Source of the DNA: Escherichia phage JLBYU40 | Sequence record: NC_105514.1 | Reading direction: 5' to 3' (one strand) | DNA length: 64,000 bases | Shown here: piece after piece, positions 4,865 to 63,835 of the stretch | Numbering within the stretch: position 1 is the first letter of the stretch | Layout of the letters: every line of letters begins with the position of its first letter | Made by a program: the position numbers and the translations under genes | The notes under the pieces: model-generated | The model's input: only the letters and a program-made list of their open reading frames with translations | What the model was told of the DNA's origin: nothing | Database searches by the model: none

Positions 4865-5581
4865 AATTTTTAAAGAGCGTGGCGGTAAACTTCCCGCCGT
4901 GTAGTTCGTCATTGCCGCCCTACGAGGTAAATACTAGCAAATACCAAAAATGGCGCAACCTTATTTTTGTAAAGAAACGTAAAGACACGATTCACCGGAT
5001 GGCGTGCGGCGACCTGGGCGCGGCGCATTAAAATTAAAGGAAACGGGCGCGCGAATACCACAAAACATAGCAGATAGGCAAGTAATTTTTTCATTTATAT
5101 TTGCTTTGCCCTACTTGACAAAATCTAAAAAGCTCAGGGTAGCGATAAACGGGCTATCCCTTTATGATGGGATGCCTGAAAAATTTACCGCGTCAGAAAG
5201 CGTTTTAGGCGGCTTATTTTCGATTTAACAAATATTTAACAAAAGCAAAATTGAAAAATAGTTGAAAAAGGTCTTGACTTTTAAAAATCAAGACTAAACG
5301 AGTTATTTTATAAAATTAATTAATTGACTTTTGTTTGTTGTTGTGTATTAGAAAGATAGCAGACTAATAATTACTAGAATGATAATCATGCTGGTGGATT
5401 GTAACAGCCTGAACCATTAGCAGACTATTAATCACGGAAAATCTCATTAGCCAACTAACTATTTCATGATATATAATATACTTATAAATTAATGAGAAAT
5501 AATAAGTATAATAAATAATAACTACAGTAAATAATAACTATAAGAAATTATCGGCCTAAGTGAGAACCACTATCATTTAAG

Positions 5582-5689
5582 TTATCCACAAGTTTATTAA
5601 CAGCACAAAATGATTTGACACGATAGGCGGCGATATAAAGACTTATCTACAGACTTATCCACAGGTTATCCTACTGTATAAATATACAG
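5582..5689. repeat. left arm of ~110-bp imperfect inverted repeat with DnaA boxes
   Basis: TTATCCACA at 5582-5590 and 5655-5663, TTATCTACA at 5643, palindrome CTGTATAAATATACAG at 5674-5689. Confidence 0.65.
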
Positions 5690-5956
5690 GGTAAATGGGT
5701 AGTATATTATAAGGATGTCGATTTTAAGCGGCCTAAAACGCTTTCTAACGAGCTAAATGCGGTGGGGTAATATTAAAGTAAAGCCTTCACCCGTCGCCCT
5801 GGTGGCTTCGCCGTGTTTTGCTCTTTATTACACCGCTGCGCGGTTATCATAAAAATATGCGCTAGGCAAGGAAAATAAAAAGGTAAAATAATCTTTGCCT
5901 ATGCTAGAAAATTACCTTTATCATTCACTCACCGATTAACGAGGGAGGCTGAACAA

Positions 5957-6967
5957 ATGAGGCTTTATAAACCTGATAATGCCACCGTTTTAAAAGGTGC
6001 ATTGCGCAACCTGCTGGACGGTAGCAAGTCAACCAGCATTAAACATTTTATTAACAAGGTTGAAACTATTCATCAAAACTTTTTTGATGAATATGACGCC
6101 TATGATATGGATAGTTTTCTACCCTTATATAAGCAAGGGGCAACGCTAGTTTTATATAATCGGGATTGCCATATCTTTACAGGCAGGGGAGCGGGACCGG
6201 ATACCGATTTTATTGTTGCGCAGGGCAATACTATTGTTGCGTATCATAGCAATTCAGGCCGTCAATCATTTAATATAAATGCTTTTGAGCTTATTGGGCT
6301 TGATCTTATAAACGGGCTTTCTAGCATTGAGGGATTTTTAGATGTTATCTGGAAGTATTTACCCGCTGGATGGTATAAGCCGGATAATGACGGATCTCAA
6401 TATACCGCTATAATGGCTTTTGATGGCGATGGTAATTTTTTGTTACCTTCGAAATTATACCCTTATGTATATAATGATCTAATAGAAGAGGCTGGTTTTT
6501 CTTTCTGGAAAGATGATGATCAGCCCATTGACAATATAGAAAACCATGCTGTAAATTCTAACACTCAAAGCGTTAACACTCAAACTACTGAAAACAAAGG
6601 AAAAAATACCATGACCAAGATCGCTAATATCGTTGCCGCTAATAAATCCGCCGTTGTAAATGCTGCAAAACTGGAAGCGGGTAAAATTGCACTGACTCAA
6701 ATTACGAAAGTAGCGGCTAAAAAAGCACCGTTCATGATTAAAGGTTATATTGATACACCTATCGGTCGAGTAGTGATTGCCAACCTGCTGAGCGTAGCGG
6801 TTGACCAGTATGCCCCGAACAACCAGAAAGCGAAAGCGGTAGCAGGTGCAGCTATGGAAGCGGCTATGTTAGAAATGGTACAAAGTTTCAATATTGCTGA
6901 AATGATTGATGAAATGGTAAAAGGTATTGATATTTCTACTTTTACTACTAACACTGAAAGCGAGTAA
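5957..6967 (+). CDS. hypothetical pre-early protein (336 aa)
   Basis: RBS GAGGGAGG upstream of ATG; first gene of plus-strand cassette between inverted-repeat arms. Confidence 0.55.
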   Translation: MRLYKPDNATVLKGALRNLLDGSKSTSIKHFINKVETIHQNFFDEYDAYDMDSFLPLYKQGATLVLYNRDCHIFTGRGAGPDTDFIVAQGNTIVAYHSNSGRQSFNINAFELIGLDLINGLSSIEGFLDVIWKYLPAGWYKPDNDGSQYTAIMAFDGDGNFLLPSKLYPYVYNDLIEEAGFSFWKDDDQPIDNIENHAVNSNTQSVNTQTTENKGKNTMTKIANIVAANKSAVVNAAKLEAGKIALTQITKVAAKKAPFMIKGYIDTPIGRVVIANLLSVAVDQYAPNNQKAKAVAGAAMEAAMLEMVQSFNIAEMIDEMVKGIDISTFTTNTESE

Positions 6968-13661: not shown

Positions 13662-14079
13662 TTCGTAACATAGTGGCCGTTTCCATAAGACCTAGTGTAG
13701 TATCACGCTTATTGATCTGTTTACCGAGTTCATCGGTACGTTTACCGATGTAAGCGTTAATAGCCATATTCATAGCTGAGGCGAGATCTTCTTTGGTTAT
13801 CTCTTCGTCATCTAAGGCTAATTTAGCCAAAGAATCAAATGTGCTAGAGAGTCCTATAAGATCGGAGGTTTCTTTGGCCAAAATAGGATTAATATTATCT
13901 ACTGTTACTTCTAGCATGGAGTTAACAATATCTTCTCCGTCTACTAGACCAGATTCAATATTACTCTCCCACTCCTTCATCTGCTCCAATAATGGATTTT
14001 TCTTTTCTGTCATGGTAGAGGTTTCCTGTGTCAGTTGGTAAGAAGGATGATTGAGCTTTAGGCGGATGTTGTTTAGCAA
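13642..14079 (-). CDS. hypothetical protein
   Basis: 145 aa ORF; true start may be an internal Met. Confidence 0.4.
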   Translation of the reverse strand: MLNNIRLKLNHPSYQLTQETSTMTEKKNPLLEQMKEWESNIESGLVDGEDIVNSMLEVTVDNINPILAKETSDLIGLSSTFDSLAKLALDDEEITKEDLASAMNMAINAYIGKRTDELGKQINKRDTTLGLMETATMLRSGKQLH

Positions 14080-14422
14080 TCCAGTTAAGAATCAGTACAC
14101 GACTAGGAACAATATCAGTGTTGTACCAGAAATCATGAACCCATTGACGAGCATCCTCAAACTTACCAAATTTATATTCTTTCTTAAACAATTCAAACCC
14201 AAAACAATCTGGTGTAAAGTCTACTTCACGATATTGAACTACTTTAGAACCAGTTAGGTCTTGGATCGCTGCATTAATTTCTGTATGCGAGAATTTTGTT
14301 TCGTGAAACTTATTAAAGAATCGGTAGTTGAAGCGTCCGTTCGTTTCGACAAACAACTGGATGAAAAGATCGTTAAATTGGTTATCAAACCAGTAATTCT
14401 GTAGTTGTTGTAGTGCTGTCAT
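13961..14422 (-). CDS. hypothetical protein
   Basis: 153 aa ORF. Confidence 0.45.
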   Translation of the reverse strand: MTALQQLQNYWFDNQFNDLFIQLFVETNGRFNYRFFNKFHETKFSHTEINAAIQDLTGSKVVQYREVDFTPDCFGFELFKKEYKFGKFEDARQWVHDFWYNTDIVPSRVLILNWIAKQHPPKAQSSFLPTDTGNLYHDRKEKSIIGADEGVGE

Positions 14423-14619
14423 TTACGAACTCCGTTAATTGCCACGATGATGCCTTCATACATAAAAGGAAGTAGTTCAGAAGTGTAGAAGATATTTTCC
14501 GTTATTCCTAGATGTCGAAAAAGTATATTAAATAATGCTGTTAGAAATACAATCTGGGGCAGTAATACAAAATACTCAGTTACAATCTTTGGTGCCCGAT
14601 AAACAAGACGTTTTATCAT
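14419..14619 (-). CDS. small membrane protein
   Basis: 66 aa, hydrophobic. Confidence 0.35.
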   Translation of the reverse strand: MIKRLVYRAPKIVTEYFVLLPQIVFLTALFNILFRHLGITENIFYTSELLPFMYEGIIVAINGVRK

Positions 14620-14718
14620 TGTTTTTAAGTCTCCTTATTACTTTGGCCTGCTCCACAATAATGAAAACTGCGAGCACTAATAGTGCTATTAGCCCCGCAG
14701 TAATTGGTACTAAATCAA

Positions 14719-15096
14719 TCATGGGAGACGCCATACGTAATTAGCTGTCTGTAGAACCTTAGGTGTGTCATCATGATACATTACTACAGACTTTGGTGAA
14801 TAGCTATCAGCTAGCTCTTTACGAATCATCTTACATTCTTCACCAGTATCGATATTTTTAACTATCACTTTCATATTAAGAGGTGTTAATACAGAAAGCG
14901 GTTTCCAGAAGTCCTCAATCTCAATTCCTACCTTTTTCTCGATTACCATGAGGACTTCTAGTGTATCATCTGGAATACTAATATTATTATTCACAAACTG
15001 TAATATCTCATGTAAGGTATTTAATTCATTAAAATTAAGCTTCATCTTTAAGAATATCCTCAACCATATCACAGGACTGTTGCAATTCGTCAGCAA
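14719..15096 (-). CDS. hypothetical protein
   Basis: 125 aa ORF. Confidence 0.45.
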   Translation of the reverse strand: MLTNCNSPVIWLRIFLKMKLNFNELNTLHEILQFVNNNISIPDDTLEVLMVIEKKVGIEIEDFWKPLSVLTPLNMKVIVKNIDTGEECKMIRKELADSYSPKSVVMYHDDTPKVLQTANYVWRLP

Positions 15097-15280
15097 TGCG
15101 CTTAATATCGGTCTTCGTCACTCTACCGATTAACATCACCAGTAACATAGAAAGTATAATAAGTGGGACTGGAATAACAAATAAAGCTACCTTAACAACA
15201 TTCTTTGGCGTCCATGTGTGGTACTTAGTAACCAGTACACCAACCACAATTAGATAAAACGCTAGAATAAACATCATCAT
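15035..15280 (-). CDS. small membrane protein
   Basis: 81 aa, two hydrophobic helices. Confidence 0.4.
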   Translation of the reverse strand: MMMFILAFYLIVVGVLVTKYHTWTPKNVVKVALFVIPVPLIILSMLLVMLIGRVTKTDIKRIADELQQSCDMVEDILKDEA

Positions 15281-15558
15281 TTTTTAATCTCCGTAATTAT
15301 CTGAGCACGCATTACTTTATTAGGTAGTTTTGTATTCCCAGCAATTGCTTCAATATTGTTTAGTTTTTCTTTTAGAATATCTGAGCGTCTCTGTGCTAGT
15401 TCAATATCTTGTTCTTGTTCTATTAAGCGGCAGTGAAGTCCACTATTAGTAGTAAGCATACTCTCTATATTTTTTCGCATGCTTACAATACCAATAACCC
15501 CACCAATCGCTACTAGTGTCATAAGCACTAGCAATCCAATGAGAATTTCAGTTAACAT
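15277..15558 (-). CDS. small membrane protein
   Basis: 93 aa, N-terminal TM helix. Confidence 0.4.
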   Translation of the reverse strand: MLTEILIGLLVLMTLVAIGGVIGIVSMRKNIESMLTTNSGLHCRLIEQEQDIELAQRRSDILKEKLNNIEAIAGNTKLPNKVMRAQIITEIKK

Positions 15559-15721
15559 TAAATGCCCCTACATTTTTCGTTATTTGGCGTTACTTTGCAA
15601 ATCTCTACGTTTAGCTCATGAAGAGACTTGTCTACTTCAGTTAAGCGTATGTTAAGAGAAACCATATTATATATTAGTATTCCTATAAGGAATGACAGTA
15701 TTGAAATTGATACTCTTTCCA

Positions 15722-21143: not shown

Positions 21144-21796
21144 ATTGATCTACCTAAAGATCTCTGTTGTGGAGAACAGAGCTTTGTTAAATACTCGTTA
21201 AATTTCTCAGAATCGGCCGCATCTACAGGATTATCTTTCCAAGCAATACCAATATATCCAGCATAGATATTGTTTAGATTGAAATACGGACAAGTGTATA
21301 TGTAATTAAAAGTAACGTTCTTAAACGCAGGTATATTTAACCCCATGTATTTATTTACTTTTACACTTAAATCCGATGCGTAGTTAAAGCCCTCTAAGTG
21401 ACGTCTATATAGCTCAGACGTTTTATTTACCGCTTTATCGGCCAAGTCAGCCCTATCTAATTGCGCATTGCTTTCCCATGCAATAATGTTAGAATAATCA
21501 TTAATGGCATCGGGTTTATACTTGACGACAAAAACAGCATCCGCACCCGTTTGAGAAAAGAGTACCATGCTCTTTTCTCTAGCTACATTAGGAAAGTTAT
21601 CTATCCTTTGAGTTTGAACATCCTGTAGAACCGCAGACGTGGAGAAAGTCTTTAAGAATGACATCACCTCGCTAGTATTACTAACAAATAAGAAAATAAT
21701 GACAGCAACTAAGATAGTTAGCAGACGTTTAAGAAGCGATGCTGGATCTTTCGCTTCTTGGAGCAGTACCGTTAATAATTGTAAGAACTTTTCCAA
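21140..21796 (-). CDS. putative holin
   Basis: 218 aa with one N-terminal TM helix; 4-nt overlap with endolysin start. Confidence 0.45.
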   Translation of the reverse strand: MEKFLQLLTVLLQEAKDPASLLKRLLTILVAVIIFLFVSNTSEVMSFLKTFSTSAVLQDVQTQRIDNFPNVAREKSMVLFSQTGADAVFVVKYKPDAINDYSNIIAWESNAQLDRADLADKAVNKTSELYRRHLEGFNYASDLSVKVNKYMGLNIPAFKNVTFNYIYTCPYFNLNNIYAGYIGIAWKDNPVDAADSEKFNEYLTKLCSPQQRSLGRSI

Positions 21797-27376: not shown

Positions 27377-27691
27377 TTACAGATCGGGGCGTTCATCTTC
27401 GAAACAGCCTGAGCTGATTCCTTCTCCGAATCCTACAAAGCCATCAAATTCATCATTTGAGATGCCAATAATCATTGCTTCCATTTTCCTGATCTCCGAG
27501 GTTTTCATACCTGCTTTACTATTCTTATAGTATTTGCGAGGGTTCCCACACATCCAACAAGAACAGATGCAAGGAGTAGTAGTGACAATACCTAACCGCT
27601 TGGGGCTTTCTTCATGTGGGAAGACTGTCCAATACTTCTTGCGATTGTTCTTCACACGTTGCCGGTGATGGCGTCTTAATGCTCGATCCAC
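27377..27691 (-). CDS. Cys-rich basic protein
   Basis: 104 aa; CICSCWMC cluster. Confidence 0.4.
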   Translation of the reverse strand: MDRALRRHHRQRVKNNRKKYWTVFPHEESPKRLGIVTTTPCICSCWMCGNPRKYYKNSKAGMKTSEIRKMEAMIIGISNDEFDGFVGFGEGISSGCFEDERPDL

Positions 27692-44608: not shown

Positions 44609-44824
44609 TCACTTGCCCAGCAGTTTAAGGATATTTTCCATAATAGTTTGGGCAGATTTTTCACTCTTGTTGGTTTCAGCCAACTTTAAAGCGAGTTCTT
44701 CCTGCTGTTTCTGAATATCCGCAGCAATTTTTTGATCAGCCTCAATACGAGCTTGAAGCTCATCAGTGATAGTGGTAAAGGAAGCAACGATTTCAGTAAC
44801 AGAACGTGGTTTCTTAGAGAACAT
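44609..44824 (-). CDS. hypothetical coiled-coil protein
   Basis: 71 aa ORF. Confidence 0.4.
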   Translation of the reverse strand: MFSKKPRSVTEIVASFTTITDELQARIEADQKIAADIQKQQEELALKLAETNKSEKSAQTIMENILKLLGK

Positions 44825-45403: not shown

Positions 45404-45441
45404 TATTTATTTTCCTTTTTGTTTATCAATTTATGAAGTAT

Positions 45442-45470
45442 ATTATACGAGAATTTGAAGCGTTTAGCAA
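45442..45470 (-). promoter_or_regulatory. early promoter
   Basis: -35 TTGCTA, 17-bp spacer, -10 TATAAT. Confidence 0.5.
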
Positions 45471-52009: not shown

Positions 52010-52771
52010 TTACACCTTCCCCATGTCTTTAAAAATATCATAGAATGCTTTAGACTCAACAGAACGAACGTTATCAATCAATTCGATCATTGAGAAGGGG
52101 GCATTTTCGTATTTCTCATAGACTTCCATAAGGAGTGCTAGACCTGAGTCGCCTTTAATGTCTTTCTGGGCTATATCTCCGCAGATAATTAAACGGCAGT
52201 CTTGTCCTACACGAGTTAGGAGACAAATCATTGCCTCAACGGAAATATTCTGAGCTTCATCGACAATTACATAGGAGTTGTTGAAAGTTCTGCCACGAGC
52301 ATGTTCGATAGCCAAAAATTTAATTTTCTGACGTTCGACATACCCTTTATATGCATGATCGCCAATGGCCCATTTCATACCATCAGCTATTGGCTCCAAC
52401 CAAGGCTCTAGCTTTTCCGCTAGATCACCAGGAAGCATACCAAGAGACTTACCTAGAGGTTCATTAGGACGTACGAGAATCACTTGCTCAATATCTGAGT
52501 GAATGTCTACTAGTTCCTGAGCTGCAAGAACGGACGGAATAAAGGTTTTACCAGTACCTGGCTCACCGATACCCACAGTCACTGTGTTGTTCTTGATCAT
52601 ATTGATATATGATTTTTGCTCGCGGTTTTTACCTACTAGGGATTTAGCAACTGGGTTAGCGTAATCATTAGAAAAATCAGCCTGAATTACGTTATTCTCA
52701 TATTTGTTGCCACGCTTTCTTGAACCATTGCGGTTCTCTCTTTTTTGACGTGCTTTTCCCATAAATAACAC
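52010..52771 (-). CDS. phoH: PhoH-like ATPase
   Basis: 253 aa; Walker A GEPGTGKT and Walker B VIVDEAQN. Confidence 0.75.
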   Translation of the reverse strand: MLFMGKARQKRENRNGSRKRGNKYENNVIQADFSNDYANPVAKSLVGKNREQKSYINMIKNNTVTVGIGEPGTGKTFIPSVLAAQELVDIHSDIEQVILVRPNEPLGKSLGMLPGDLAEKLEPWLEPIADGMKWAIGDHAYKGYVERQKIKFLAIEHARGRTFNNSYVIVDEAQNISVEAMICLLTRVGQDCRLIICGDIAQKDIKGDSGLALLMEVYEKYENAPFSMIELIDNVRSVESKAFYDIFKDMGKV

Positions 52772-53056
52772 TCCTATAGTGTACTTCGCTAACAGAGGAT
52801 CAACAAAAAGATCTTGTTTATCAACTTACAAATATATTATACCAATATATACAGTAAAAAGCAACTACAATTTTAAATAAGCCTATGATATTGCATTTAA
52901 ATAAAAAATTTGCTTGCTTTTAACGTGAGATGTGTGATACTAGATAATCATTTTATATCGCGTGCACGAGTGCGTGATTATACAATTTTTAATAGAGATT
53001 GGCAAATAAAATTTTTTGACTCAGATCATGTTATAGAACTTTATAGTAAAATATTG

Positions 53057-53085
53057 TTGACATCCGCCCTCGAATGAGTTATAAT
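53057..53085 (+). promoter_or_regulatory. consensus sigma70 promoter upstream of nrdD
   Basis: -35 TTGACA, 17-bp spacer, -10 TATAAT; FNR-like TTGAC-N4-ATCAT at 53016-53029. Confidence 0.55.
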
Positions 53086-53114
53086 AGTAGTCTTAGTTAG
53101 AGAAGGAGGGTGTA

Positions 53115-54989
53115 ATGAATCGTAATGAAGAACTAAAATATAAAGAAATGCAGGCGTTAATTAGAAACTGCAAAGAGATTATCGAAGGGTCAGCAGATGA
53201 AGAGCTGCTGTTTAATAATGCTAATAAACCCTCAGAACGTTTCCCTACACAAAGGGATATGCTTGCAGGTGAATTGAGTAAGTATCTAATTCTAGAAGAA
53301 ATGCCAATTCAGATTCGAAATGCTCATATGATTGGGGATATTCATTTCCATGATGCTGATTATGCTGCATTAGGCATGACTAACTGTTGCCTGGTAGCTC
53401 TGGAAGATATGTTGAAGAATGGTATGAAGGTTGGTAATGCTGAAATTAGCACTCCAAACTCTATCACTACTGCGGCGGCTATTACTGCTCAGATTATCAC
53501 TCAGGTTAGCTCCCATCAGTATGGTGGTACTTCTGTAGATCGCCTTGATGAAGTATTAGCCCCTTATGTTCGTAAATCCTATGACAAAAATCATGCGTTT
53601 GCAAAACGCTGGACTAAGGATGAGGCCAAAGCATCCGTAATGGCTACGGAGATGACTGAAAAAGAAGTCTATGATGCTTGTCAGGGTCTAGAGTATGAGA
53701 TCAATACGATGTTCAACTCTAATGGTCAGAGTCCATTTATTACCTTTGGTTTTGGTCTAGGAACTTCTTGGGAAGCTCGTCTAGTACAGAAAGCAATACT
53801 GAAAGTACGTATGGATGGTTTAGGTATCAATAAACGTACAGCTATCTTCCCGAAACTGGTATTTGTACTTCGTGATGGAGTAAATATGAAACCAGGAGAT
53901 GTTAATTATGACATCAAGAAGTTAGCTATGAAATGTACTGCTGAACGTATGTATCCAGATTATATCAGCTATGACAAAGTTGTAGAAGTTACTGGAGACT
54001 ACAAAGTTTCTATGGGCTGCCGTTCATTCCTAGCTGCTACAGAAGATGGTGAAACTGCAGGTCGTAATAACTTAGGTGTTGTTTCTGTAAACTTGCCTAG
54101 AATTGCTATCGAAGCTGAAGGAAATATTGACCTATTCTTTGATTTGCTTGAGCTACGTGTAGATACAGCATTAAAAGCGTTGGAGTGGAGAGTTGATCGC
54201 TTAAAATACATTCAAGCTAAAGCTGCACCCATCCTCTATATGTCAGGAGCCTTTGGGTTACGCTTAGGGCCTGATGAATATGTATTTGATCATTTCTATA
54301 ACCGTGCTTCTGTATCTCTAGGGTATATTGGTTGCCATGAAATGCTACAGTTCATGTTTGGCAAAGATGTAGACACAATGTCCGAGACCTGCATTAAGTT
54401 TGTTCAGCGTGTATTGCAGTACATGCGAGATAGAGTCGATCAGAAGAAGGAAGAAACTAAGTTAGGTTATAGCCTGTATGCTACACCATCAGAATCCCTA
54501 TGTGATCGTTTTTGTCGTCTAGACCGTGAATATTTCCCGGAGCATGAAGATATTCTGTCTAAAGGATACTACACTAACTCGCACCACCTTGATGTAGAAC
54601 GCAAAGTTGCTCCCAATGTGAAATTTGATTATGAATCTAATTTTACTCCGATTGCTTCTGGTGGGTGCATTTCCTATGTAGAACTACCAGATATGAAACG
54701 ATTCCCAGATGCACTGGAATGGGTTATTAATTATGCTGCTAGTAAAGTTCATTACTTCGGTATTAATACTCCAGTGGATTCTTGTGGTAAATGTGGATTC
54801 TTAGGTGAAACAATAGCATCCGAAGATGGATTTAAGTGCCCTATCTGTGGTAATCATGACCCCGAAACTCTTGAAGTAACTCGTCGAGTTTGTGGGTATC
54901 TTGGAAATCCAGGTGCTCGTCCATTTAACCCGGGCAAACAGCACGAGGTTATGGGCAGAGTGAAACATCAGGATATTCGAGCTAAATAA
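53115..54989 (+). CDS. nrdD: anaerobic ribonucleoside-triphosphate reductase (class III)
   Basis: 624 aa; C-terminal RRVCGYLG glycyl-radical motif and CxxC zinc ribbon. Confidence 0.75.
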   Translation: MNRNEELKYKEMQALIRNCKEIIEGSADEELLFNNANKPSERFPTQRDMLAGELSKYLILEEMPIQIRNAHMIGDIHFHDADYAALGMTNCCLVALEDMLKNGMKVGNAEISTPNSITTAAAITAQIITQVSSHQYGGTSVDRLDEVLAPYVRKSYDKNHAFAKRWTKDEAKASVMATEMTEKEVYDACQGLEYEINTMFNSNGQSPFITFGFGLGTSWEARLVQKAILKVRMDGLGINKRTAIFPKLVFVLRDGVNMKPGDVNYDIKKLAMKCTAERMYPDYISYDKVVEVTGDYKVSMGCRSFLAATEDGETAGRNNLGVVSVNLPRIAIEAEGNIDLFFDLLELRVDTALKALEWRVDRLKYIQAKAAPILYMSGAFGLRLGPDEYVFDHFYNRASVSLGYIGCHEMLQFMFGKDVDTMSETCIKFVQRVLQYMRDRVDQKKEETKLGYSLYATPSESLCDRFCRLDREYFPEHEDILSKGYYTNSHHLDVERKVAPNVKFDYESNFTPIASGGCISYVELPDMKRFPDALEWVINYAASKVHYFGINTPVDSCGKCGFLGETIASEDGFKCPICGNHDPETLEVTRRVCGYLGNPGARPFNPGKQHEVMGRVKHQDIRAK

Positions 54990-55031
54990 GCTAATCAGCT
55001 GGGTTGCTAGTCGACCTGGCTTTTATTTTAT

Positions 55032-55060
55032 TTGCTTTCAGCCAAAAATTTATATATAAT
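55032..55060 (+). promoter_or_regulatory. plus-strand early promoter
   Basis: TTTATTTGCTTTCAG...17...TATAAT then ATAAATTTGAGAGG leader; near-duplicate of the promoter at 62722-62750. Confidence 0.55.
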
Positions 55061-55088
55061 AGATTTATAAATTTGAGAGGAGAAAGCT

Positions 55089-55583: not shown

Positions 55584-55746
55584 TCCAGAAAACATGCTTA
55601 TTGAGCAATGGAACTTTGGTTATAATGCTGGTGTAGCTACTTGTATTGCTAGATTGGATACGCTTATTAAGCAAGAAAAGGTACGCCCTGAGGAAGCAAT
55701 TTTACTCCAAAATATTATCGAAGGATTTAAGCAAGGAATCGTATAG
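55552..55746 (+). CDS. hypothetical protein
   Basis: 64 aa from ATG 55552 with RBS GGAGGAGAAA; internal start of the longer listed ORF. Confidence 0.4.
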   Translation: MDFLNQNLKSNPENMLIEQWNFGYNAGVATCIARLDTLIKQEKVRPEEAILLQNIIEGFKQGIV

Positions 55747-62721: not shown

Positions 62722-62750
62722 TTGCTTTCAGGAAAATTTTTCTGTATAAT
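62722..62750 (+). promoter_or_regulatory. plus-strand early promoter
   Basis: -35 TTGCTT, 17-bp spacer, -10 TATAAT, then ATAGATTCATAAATTTGAGAGAGAGGAG leader. Confidence 0.6.
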
Positions 62751-62783
62751 AGATTCATAAATTTGAGAGAGAGGAGTTTAAAT

Positions 62784-63732: not shown

Positions 63733-63835
63733 CTACTTAAAAATTTCAGTTGCTTAATCCTACAATTCTTGATATAATATTCTCATAGTTTGAAAGAACT
63801 ATTCTGTTTAATTCTTAATTAAGGAAATATAAAAT

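Follow-up and report, generated by a model that had tools for sequence, protein, structure and literature searches.

The anaerobic ribonucleotide reductase gene (nrdD) of Escherichia phage JLBYU40 has its own perfect consensus sigma-70 promoter (PnrdD, nt 53057–53085) and, upstream of this, an inverted repeat resembling a binding site of the host anaerobic regulator FNR (nt 53016–53029). Both lie in a divergent intergenic region of 343 bp (nt 52772–53114), between phoH and nrdD, within the 64,000 nt stretch of sequence record NC_105514.1 analysed here (the 64-kb window). Comparison with related phages points to purifying selection on the dyad among T5-like phages and, on balance, we judge it to be a functional FNR site that affects transcription of nrdD. 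The window was assigned to the T5-like phages (Demerecviridae, Tequintavirus/Epseptimavirus); its 52–55 kb stretch is matched by 444 phage records and shares 98.7% identity with Phage NBSal003.

PnrdD consists of TTGACA (nt 53057–53062), a 17-nt spacer (nt 53063–53079) and TATAAT (nt 53080–53085) on the plus strand, exactly as read in the initial annotation, and is followed by the discriminator AGTAGT and a predicted transcription start (+1) near nt 53092. It is the sole 12/12 match to the sigma-70 consensus in the window, where matches with at most one mismatch number five against 1.0 expected. The hexamers, the 17-bp spacing, the placement ahead of nrdD and conservation among relatives all identify it as a sigma-70 consensus promoter, and a comparison of the window with Klebsiella phage FZ41 shows that the spacer has diverged (4/17 positions identical) while the hexamers have been kept. 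PnrdD had also been described as unlike the TTGCTT-type early promoters, and this is borne out: the pattern TTGCTW-N17-TATAATA occurs 25 times in the window (0.58 expected), and PnrdD, with its TTGACA −35 element and AGTAGT discriminator, falls outside this family. Members of the family at nt 62722–62751, 63750–63779 and 45441–45470 match the sequences of the classical T5 promoters PN25, PD/E20 and PH207. The T5 record (AY543070) places P-N25 and P-H207 at map positions corresponding to early-family members of the window. The family pattern matches the published consensus of T5 early promoters (PMC3326045; PMC7472727), for all known examples of which an ATATT discriminator is stated to be a hallmark (PMC7472727).

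The dyad, TTGAC-TCAG-ATCAT, is centred at nt 53022.5, and its sequence and coordinates are likewise as first described. Its position upstream of the −35 element was correctly given, but the distance is 27 nt rather than about 30 bp, which puts the centre of the dyad at −69.5 if +1 is at the predicted nt 53092. The intervening gap (nt 53030–53056) is AT-rich, invariant in length and variable in sequence among relatives, and ends in an A-tract (AAAATATTG) that could be a docking region for the C-terminal domain of the RNA polymerase alpha subunit. A scan with a weight matrix had been proposed as a check on the dyad, and was carried out with a matrix built from 63 E. coli FNR sites bound in chromatin immunoprecipitation (ChIP) experiments (Myers 2013, PMC3688515, Table S6). 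Bit scores for FNR and ArcA are mostly on an E. coli background, and those based on window composition are marked as such. The dyad scores 14.0 bits, which is within the range of the bound sites (11.8–21.3, median 15.4) and at their 27th percentile. It is the second-best match in 64 kb; the other top matches (nt 44732, 2080 and 41567) appear to be intragenic, so that the dyad is apparently the only high-scoring match outside coding sequence. A first-order Markov simulation gave 1.09 equally good sites expected per 64 kb, and a stretch of 343 bp with the composition of this region would contain one with a probability of 0.006 (2e-5 per fixed offset). Taken alone, the dyad is suggestive rather than compelling.

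Much stronger evidence comes from related phages. The regions upstream of nrdD were compared in 27 viral contigs, found by a protein-based locus search, and in 18 GenBank phages; this comparison replaced an exact-pattern scan of the viral contigs, which had given eight loci. A metagenome scan with a NrdD alignment returned homologues of at most 54% identity, mostly bacterial, that were uninformative for the phage promoter. The window's clade supplied 19 unique intergenic sequences. In these, none of the six positions of the TGA/TCA core varies, and the single variable position among the ten of the half-sites is a T to A change at position 14, toward the consensus. Over the same sequences, three of the four central positions of the dyad and 15 of the 27 gap positions vary, while both promoter hexamers are invariant. 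Invariant half-sites around a variable centre are the footprint that would be expected for a protein binding to a dyad. When four lineages (the window, STG2, NR01 and FZ41) were anchored at the −35 element, 7/10 half-site columns proved invariant, compared to 9/70 of the other upstream columns (Fisher p = 3e-4), so that conservation of the half-sites exceeds that of the flanking DNA. The distance from dyad to −35 element is 27 nt in the window, in NR01/AZ21 and in FZ41, despite their differing sequences.

Several relatives carry better versions of the site at this offset. Locus L018 and phage SpoonbillGilly have TTGACTCAGATCAA (17.5 bits), Eps7 has TTGACCCAGATCAA (17.7 bits), and STG2, the flanks of which are largely rewritten, has TTGACTAAAATCAA (17.5 bits). 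NR01/AZ21 carry a perfect FNR site, TTGATAAAAATCAA (18.4 bits), in an otherwise different intergenic region, with an extra gene ahead of nrdD and the promoter TTGACG-17-TATAAT. The FZ41 version (Sugarlandvirus) is ATGATCCAGATCAA (16.2 bits), ahead of TTGACA-17-TATAAT and a NrdD with 62% identity to that of the window. In Vibrio phage Luma (L134, nt 1077–1090), a perfect TTGATCTATATCAA (20.6 bits) immediately precedes the gene of a long NrdD homologue; here, the left half of the site doubles as the −35 element of TTGATC-17-TATAAT, a geometry that differs from that of the T5-like phages. The 63-nt module of dyad, gap and −35 element was found in 296 phage records (90% identity or more), and its T5 version in 46. 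A Megablast search with the NR01-type module gave no match, probably due to low-complexity masking.

The site is not universal among relatives. At this position, T5 proper and its close relatives show TTAGC-ACAG-ATCAA (3.1 bits), in which the left half-site is destroyed. SSP1 shares this destroyed half-site and in addition carries an HNH gene insertion, and phages of the SP01/Shivani/DT571-2/Kenya-K44 type have neither an FNR nor an ArcA site. A further group has a different element. With a matrix of 115 E. coli ArcA boxes (Park 2013, PMC3798270, Table S3), no match of 9 bits or more was found in the window's intergenic region, while TGTTA-N6-TGTTA direct repeats resembling ArcA boxes were detected at nt ~1870–1930 of the Providencia, Proteus and Pectobacterium phage loci. 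They occur in Providencia phages PR1/PSTCR5 (L025/L027; −78 to −61; 24.2 bits, above every training site), Proteus phages Stubb/PM135 (L036/L037; −78 to −61; 20.9 bits) and the Pectobacterium pair (L024/L026) of My1 (−79 to −62; 19.6 bits) and DU_PP_V (−78 to −61; 18.0 bits). All are centred within 1 bp of the predicted −69.5, and each is the top ArcA match in its own 5.8-kb locus. With a matrix on window composition the corresponding boxes score 15.2–20.7 bits, and on that scale an ArcA match would arise by chance in 343 bp with a probability of 0.003 (16 bits or more) or 2.5e-5 (20 bits or more). The T5 type (L022, nt ~1883) has an ArcA-like box of 16.5 bits in inverted orientation at −95 to −78, within a clade-specific insertion of 18 bp.

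Two host anaerobic regulators, FNR and ArcA, thus appear to occupy one slot ahead of the anaerobic reductase gene, which makes oxygen-linked control in general more plausible. A bolder reading, put forward tentatively, is that the nrdD promoter has a fixed oxygen-sensor slot at −69.5, filled with sites for different host anaerobic regulators, which could switch between class III and class I reductase supply. Since the slot lies between the divergent nrdD and phoH-nrdA promoters, one bound host factor could shift deoxynucleotide supply from aerobic to anaerobic and back. Most phages of Escherichia, Salmonella and Klebsiella would then have an FNR site in the slot, those of Providencia, Proteus and Pectobacterium an ArcA site, and T5 possibly an ArcA site as well, an assignment that is equally tentative. 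As a separate observation, three very strong ArcA-like repeats are also found elsewhere in the window, at nt 5225–5242 (minus strand), 6040–6057 (minus strand) and 21184–21201 (plus strand), with 24.0, 21.4 and 18.6 bits; two reach 16 bits or more with the window-composition matrix (0.15 expected). The first of the three lies in a long non-coding stretch (nt ~5100–5950) that also has DnaA-box-like TGTGGATAA repeats.

A number of points weigh against control by FNR, and some of them favour a simpler explanation, in which PnrdD is a plain strong constitutive sigma-70 promoter, the palindrome a chance resemblance in AT-rich DNA, and nrdD is transcribed regardless of oxygen. By mismatch counting, a measure superseded by the matrix made from real bound sites, the dyad is an unremarkable 8/10 match to the simple consensus TTGAT-N4-ATCAA; matches with up to two mismatches number 72 in the window and 63 ± 7.7 in shuffled sequences, which is not above chance. 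It is also the weakest variant among the phages with an FNR site (16.2–18.4 bits in relatives). A core promoter with a 12/12 consensus should be strong on its own, and promoters that depend on an activator normally have weak core elements; in PnrdD the −35 element, the spacer length and the −10 element are all consensus. The predicted centre of −69.5 is 2 bp off the canonical class I position of −71.5. Among FNR-activated promoters of E. coli, the site is at −41.5 in 19 of 23 and at the class I position in one of 23, and upstream FNR sites can repress, as at ndh (−50.5) and yccA (−71.5) (PMC3688515). ArcA is mainly a repressor, with an unclear mode of activation (PMC3798270). The shared 27-nt offset represents conservation among related lineages and not independent invention, and the FNR dyad is dispensable, because T5 proper (46 records), SSP1 and the SP01/Shivani/DT571-2/Kenya-K44 types do without it. 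Binding or expression data for the dyad were not found, and for T5-like phages the literature searches turned up no report of FNR or ArcA sites, of oxygen-dependent nrdD control or of a start-site map. The constitutive explanation is nevertheless rather unlikely, as it has to accommodate a matrix score in the range of bound sites (p = 0.006), half-sites that are invariant while centre and flanks vary, stronger or perfect sites that diverged lineages carry at exactly this offset (p = 3e-4), and ArcA-like boxes in the same slot in phages of other host genera. The suggestion in the initial annotation that host FNR regulates the phage class III reductase is, therefore, supported by the comparative sequence evidence.

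The promoter on which such regulation would act has also to be considered. A second promoter of the TTGACA type, P2 (nt 52977–53005, minus strand; TTGCCA-17-TATAAT with a GC-rich discriminator), points toward phoH, a DUF7430 gene and nrdA, and the T5 record annotates a minus-strand promoter there. The dyad is only 10 nt from its −35 element, and its centre is at about −52.5 from the predicted P2 start. FNR might thus act mainly on P2, by binding over its upstream element and lowering transcription of the aerobic reductase under anoxia, with or without aid to PnrdD, so as to form a class I/class III switch. The presence of nrdA among the minus-strand genes fits such a role, and E. coli FNR represses nrdAB, as well as ndh from −50.5 (PMC3688515). 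The spacing is, however, in conflict with it: the distance from dyad to P2 is 16 nt greater in Salmonella phage SE3 (L044), owing to a poly-T expansion (AAAAAAATTTTTTTTTTTTTTTTTTT) just upstream of the dyad, and ~14–19 nt greater in FZ41, whereas the distance to PnrdD never varies, which points to PnrdD as the functional partner of the dyad. Moreover, NR01/AZ21 have a perfect site but no recognisable P2, and phoH and nrdA are also served by a canonical early promoter downstream of P2 (nt 52835–52864, minus strand; TTGCTT-17-TATAATA with a TG extension and ATATT discriminator). We consider P2 an improbable main target. Within the window's clade the −10 element of P2 is invariant, while 2/6 positions of its −35 element and 14/17 of its spacer vary.

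The remaining explanation is that the protein binding the dyad is not FNR but CRP, a different member of the CRP/FNR family or one encoded by the phage, or that the dyad is structural (an upstream element or bend). In its favour, the dyad is part of a larger conserved module, with 67% identity over the whole gap between the window and FZ41 and 7/27 gap columns invariant across the four lineages; CRP and FNR sites are related, and T5 proteins modify the host polymerase (PMC7472727). Yet the TTGA/TCAA half-sites, the N4 spacing and the T at position 2 are an FNR signature, the variants shift toward the FNR consensus, and the host counterpart of nrdD is FNR-controlled. A second copy of the motif, which might hint at the regulon of a phage regulator, was not found in the matrix scan of the window. 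This explanation is accordingly given little credence. A CRP site in particular was rejected on account of the half-site type, as position 2 is T in every half-site where CRP sites have G, and of the N4 spacing. The sequence TTGACT (nt 53016–53021) was also considered as the −35 element of another promoter and rejected, there being no consistent −10 element in any lineage and no explanation for conservation of the right half-site.

The best explanation of nt 53016–53085 is that they form the control region of a self-contained phage unit for NrdD, with a promoter that host RNA polymerase reads. If the dyad is an FNR site, a mechanism can be proposed. Dimeric [4Fe-4S] FNR already present under anoxia would bind the dyad (core TTGA-N6-TCA) and, from an upstream, class-I-like position, contact an alpha C-terminal domain that has docked on the AT-rich gap. 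PnrdD has more than 25 very strong early promoters to compete with, and its recruitment of polymerase would be raised or stabilised, so that the oxygen-labile NrdD would preferentially be made when it is able to work. We infer FNR binding and oxygen dependence from the sequence of the region, its statistics, conservation and spacing, and the boundaries of the unit; the direction and size of the effect on nrdD are uncertain, since PnrdD has a consensus core and −69.5 is not among the canonical positions for activation.

The gene controlled by PnrdD (nt 53115–54989, plus strand) encodes a class III (anaerobic) ribonucleoside-triphosphate reductase of 624 aa (Pfam NRDD, E = 4e-172; Gly_radical, E = 9e-23). 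A Shine-Dalgarno sequence, GGAGG (nt 53105–53109), is read 5 nt ahead of the ATG, in a leader that is near-invariant in the window's clade. Downstream of the gene is an intrinsic terminator with a 10-bp stem and T-run (nt 54997–55034, plus strand; −14.1 kcal/mol, z = −2.2), and directly after it an early-type promoter, TTGCTT-17-TATAATA (nt 55032–55061, plus strand), a match to the family pattern that would restart transcription for the downstream genes. Because of this terminator and new promoter, nrdD is predicted to be an insulated one-gene unit, and the proposal that it carries its own promoter can be extended to an ordered series of promoter, Shine-Dalgarno sequence, coding sequence, terminator and next promoter. 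The T5 record AY543070 has a matching layout of promoter (53884..53958), nrdD, terminator (55694..55729) and next promoter. The nrdD promoter as such is, therefore, not new, and it is an ordinary one. It is nameless in that record, unlike the cloned classical promoters (P-N25, P-H207, etc.), and so represents a prediction there. On the minus-strand side, the intergenic region is followed by phoH (ATG at nt 52763; Pfam PhoH, E = 3e-61), the DUF7430 gene and nrdA.

Other control elements were not evident. NrdR boxes (acaCwAtATaTwGtgt) gave no match with up to three mismatches in or near nt 52772–53114, and an Rfam search of the leader and intergenic region returned no riboswitch or other family, only one sub-threshold chance match inside the start region of phoH. 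No NrdG-like radical-SAM (CxxxCxxC) open reading frame (ORF) was found in the 64-kb window or in T5 at 40–75 kb, the late genome region being outside this search, and nrdG is not listed in the AKFV33 genome paper (PMC3326045). Since no phage nrdG was found, the phage NrdD probably depends on the host activase NrdG. The sole ORF with a CxxxCxxC motif (nt 27377–27691, minus strand, 104 aa) is without a Pfam match. The T5 reference NrdD (AY543070; L136, nt 13962–15683) shows an in-frame deletion of 50 aa compared to the window (nt 53115–54986), at approximately residues 393–442 of the window protein; family-invariant residues are lost, and T5's own nrdD may be defective.

In several lineages an extra endonuclease or hypothetical gene lies between the promoter and nrdD: loci L047, L050 and L133 (SP01, Shivani, Kenya-K44), L049 and L051 (NR01, AZ21), L020 and L030. 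The extra gene overlaps the nrdD start, the N-terminus of NrdD is replaced, and the promoter drives a two-gene operon. DT571/2 (L048) has an SP01-type upstream sequence without an annotated extra gene. In Shigella phage SSP1 (L046/L035, locus positions 327–818) a minus-strand HNH endonuclease gene, inserted between phoH and nrdD, replaces the part with P2 and the GC-rich tract into which P2 starts, and PnrdD is intact. This tract (ATATCGCGTGCACGAGTGCGTGAT, nt 52957–52976) is mostly alternating purine/pyrimidine; relatives infecting Providencia, Proteus, Pectobacterium and Klebsiella keep a tract of this kind with another sequence. The intergenic region also contains a plus-strand, early-type promoter candidate (nt 52910–52948), with an A-tract, TTGCTT (nt 52914–52919) and either a TG-extended GATACT (nt 52936–52941) or GATAAT (nt 52943–52948). 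It faces P2, the two predicted starts being convergent and ~20 bp apart, and is kept in distant relatives (TTGACA-16-GATACT in My1). The candidate may feed read-through into nrdD or interfere with P2. A 55-aa ORF at nt 52910–53077 was judged to be non-coding, as relatives show indels, the poly-T expansion, the 18-bp insertion and the HNH gene insertion there; small ORFs are annotated in this stretch in some records.

With a functional site, a virulent phage would tie an auxiliary metabolic gene to the oxygen status of its host via the host's own sensor, while encoding no regulator itself. This would account for the presence of aerobic as well as anaerobic ribonucleotide reductases in T5-like phages, and is relevant to phage performance in the anoxic gut and hence to therapy and biocontrol with T5-like phages. 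Should the slot reading be true, a strictly virulent phage senses oxygen through borrowed host regulators, the sites for which are exchanged at a constant position. This pattern of regulator swapping is the part that a specialist might find surprising, and the apparent FNR/ArcA swap at one position lends itself to clean comparisons. A consensus promoter that is naturally combined with an FNR site at −69.5 is likewise a compact system in which to examine the action of an upstream activator on a promoter that is already optimal.

An FNR site ahead of an anaerobic reductase gene is a well-known kind of element, as in the host nrdDG operon, which is activated anaerobically by FNR (PMC2892513); the E. 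coli nrdD site TTGATGTAGCTCAA is bound in ChIP experiments (PMC3688515, Table S6). The phage arrangement resembles that of nrdDG in E. coli and Salmonella in the class of enzyme and in placing an FNR-type dyad ahead of a sigma-70 promoter. The upstream FNR site of the host operon is also reported to be at a non-canonical position, about −64.5. The two differ in that the host operon has two FNR sites, NrdR boxes and a co-transcribed nrdG, whereas the phage has a single dyad at a predicted −69.5, no NrdR box, a perfect core and no nrdG nearby, and its promoter shows no homology to that of the host. The T5 nrdD promoter (AY543070) is a homologous element, with the same TTGACA-17-TATAAT, leader and terminator; its annotation names no regulator, and T5 has lost the left half-site and carries instead the 18-bp insertion with an ArcA-like box. 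Class I CRP/FNR promoters (about −61.5 or −71.5, with contact to the alpha C-terminal domain) are similar in having a single dyad at a fixed helical distance and an AT-rich stretch up to the −35 element, but the phage dyad is centred at −69.5, not −71.5, and its core is consensus rather than weak. The T5 early promoters of the PN25, PH207 and PD/E20 type share the host sigma-70 polymerase, the early genome region and AT-rich surroundings with PnrdD, and are distinguished by TTGCTW, TATAATA, often a TG extension, and ATATT in place of TTGACA and AGTAGT. Further afield, the Spo0A sites in phages phi29 and Nf (PMC2731898) provide a precedent for reading the physiological state of the host via a host transcription factor. 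In those Bacillus phages it serves lifestyle decisions, while here a virulent enterobacterial phage would tune a single metabolic gene to oxygen.

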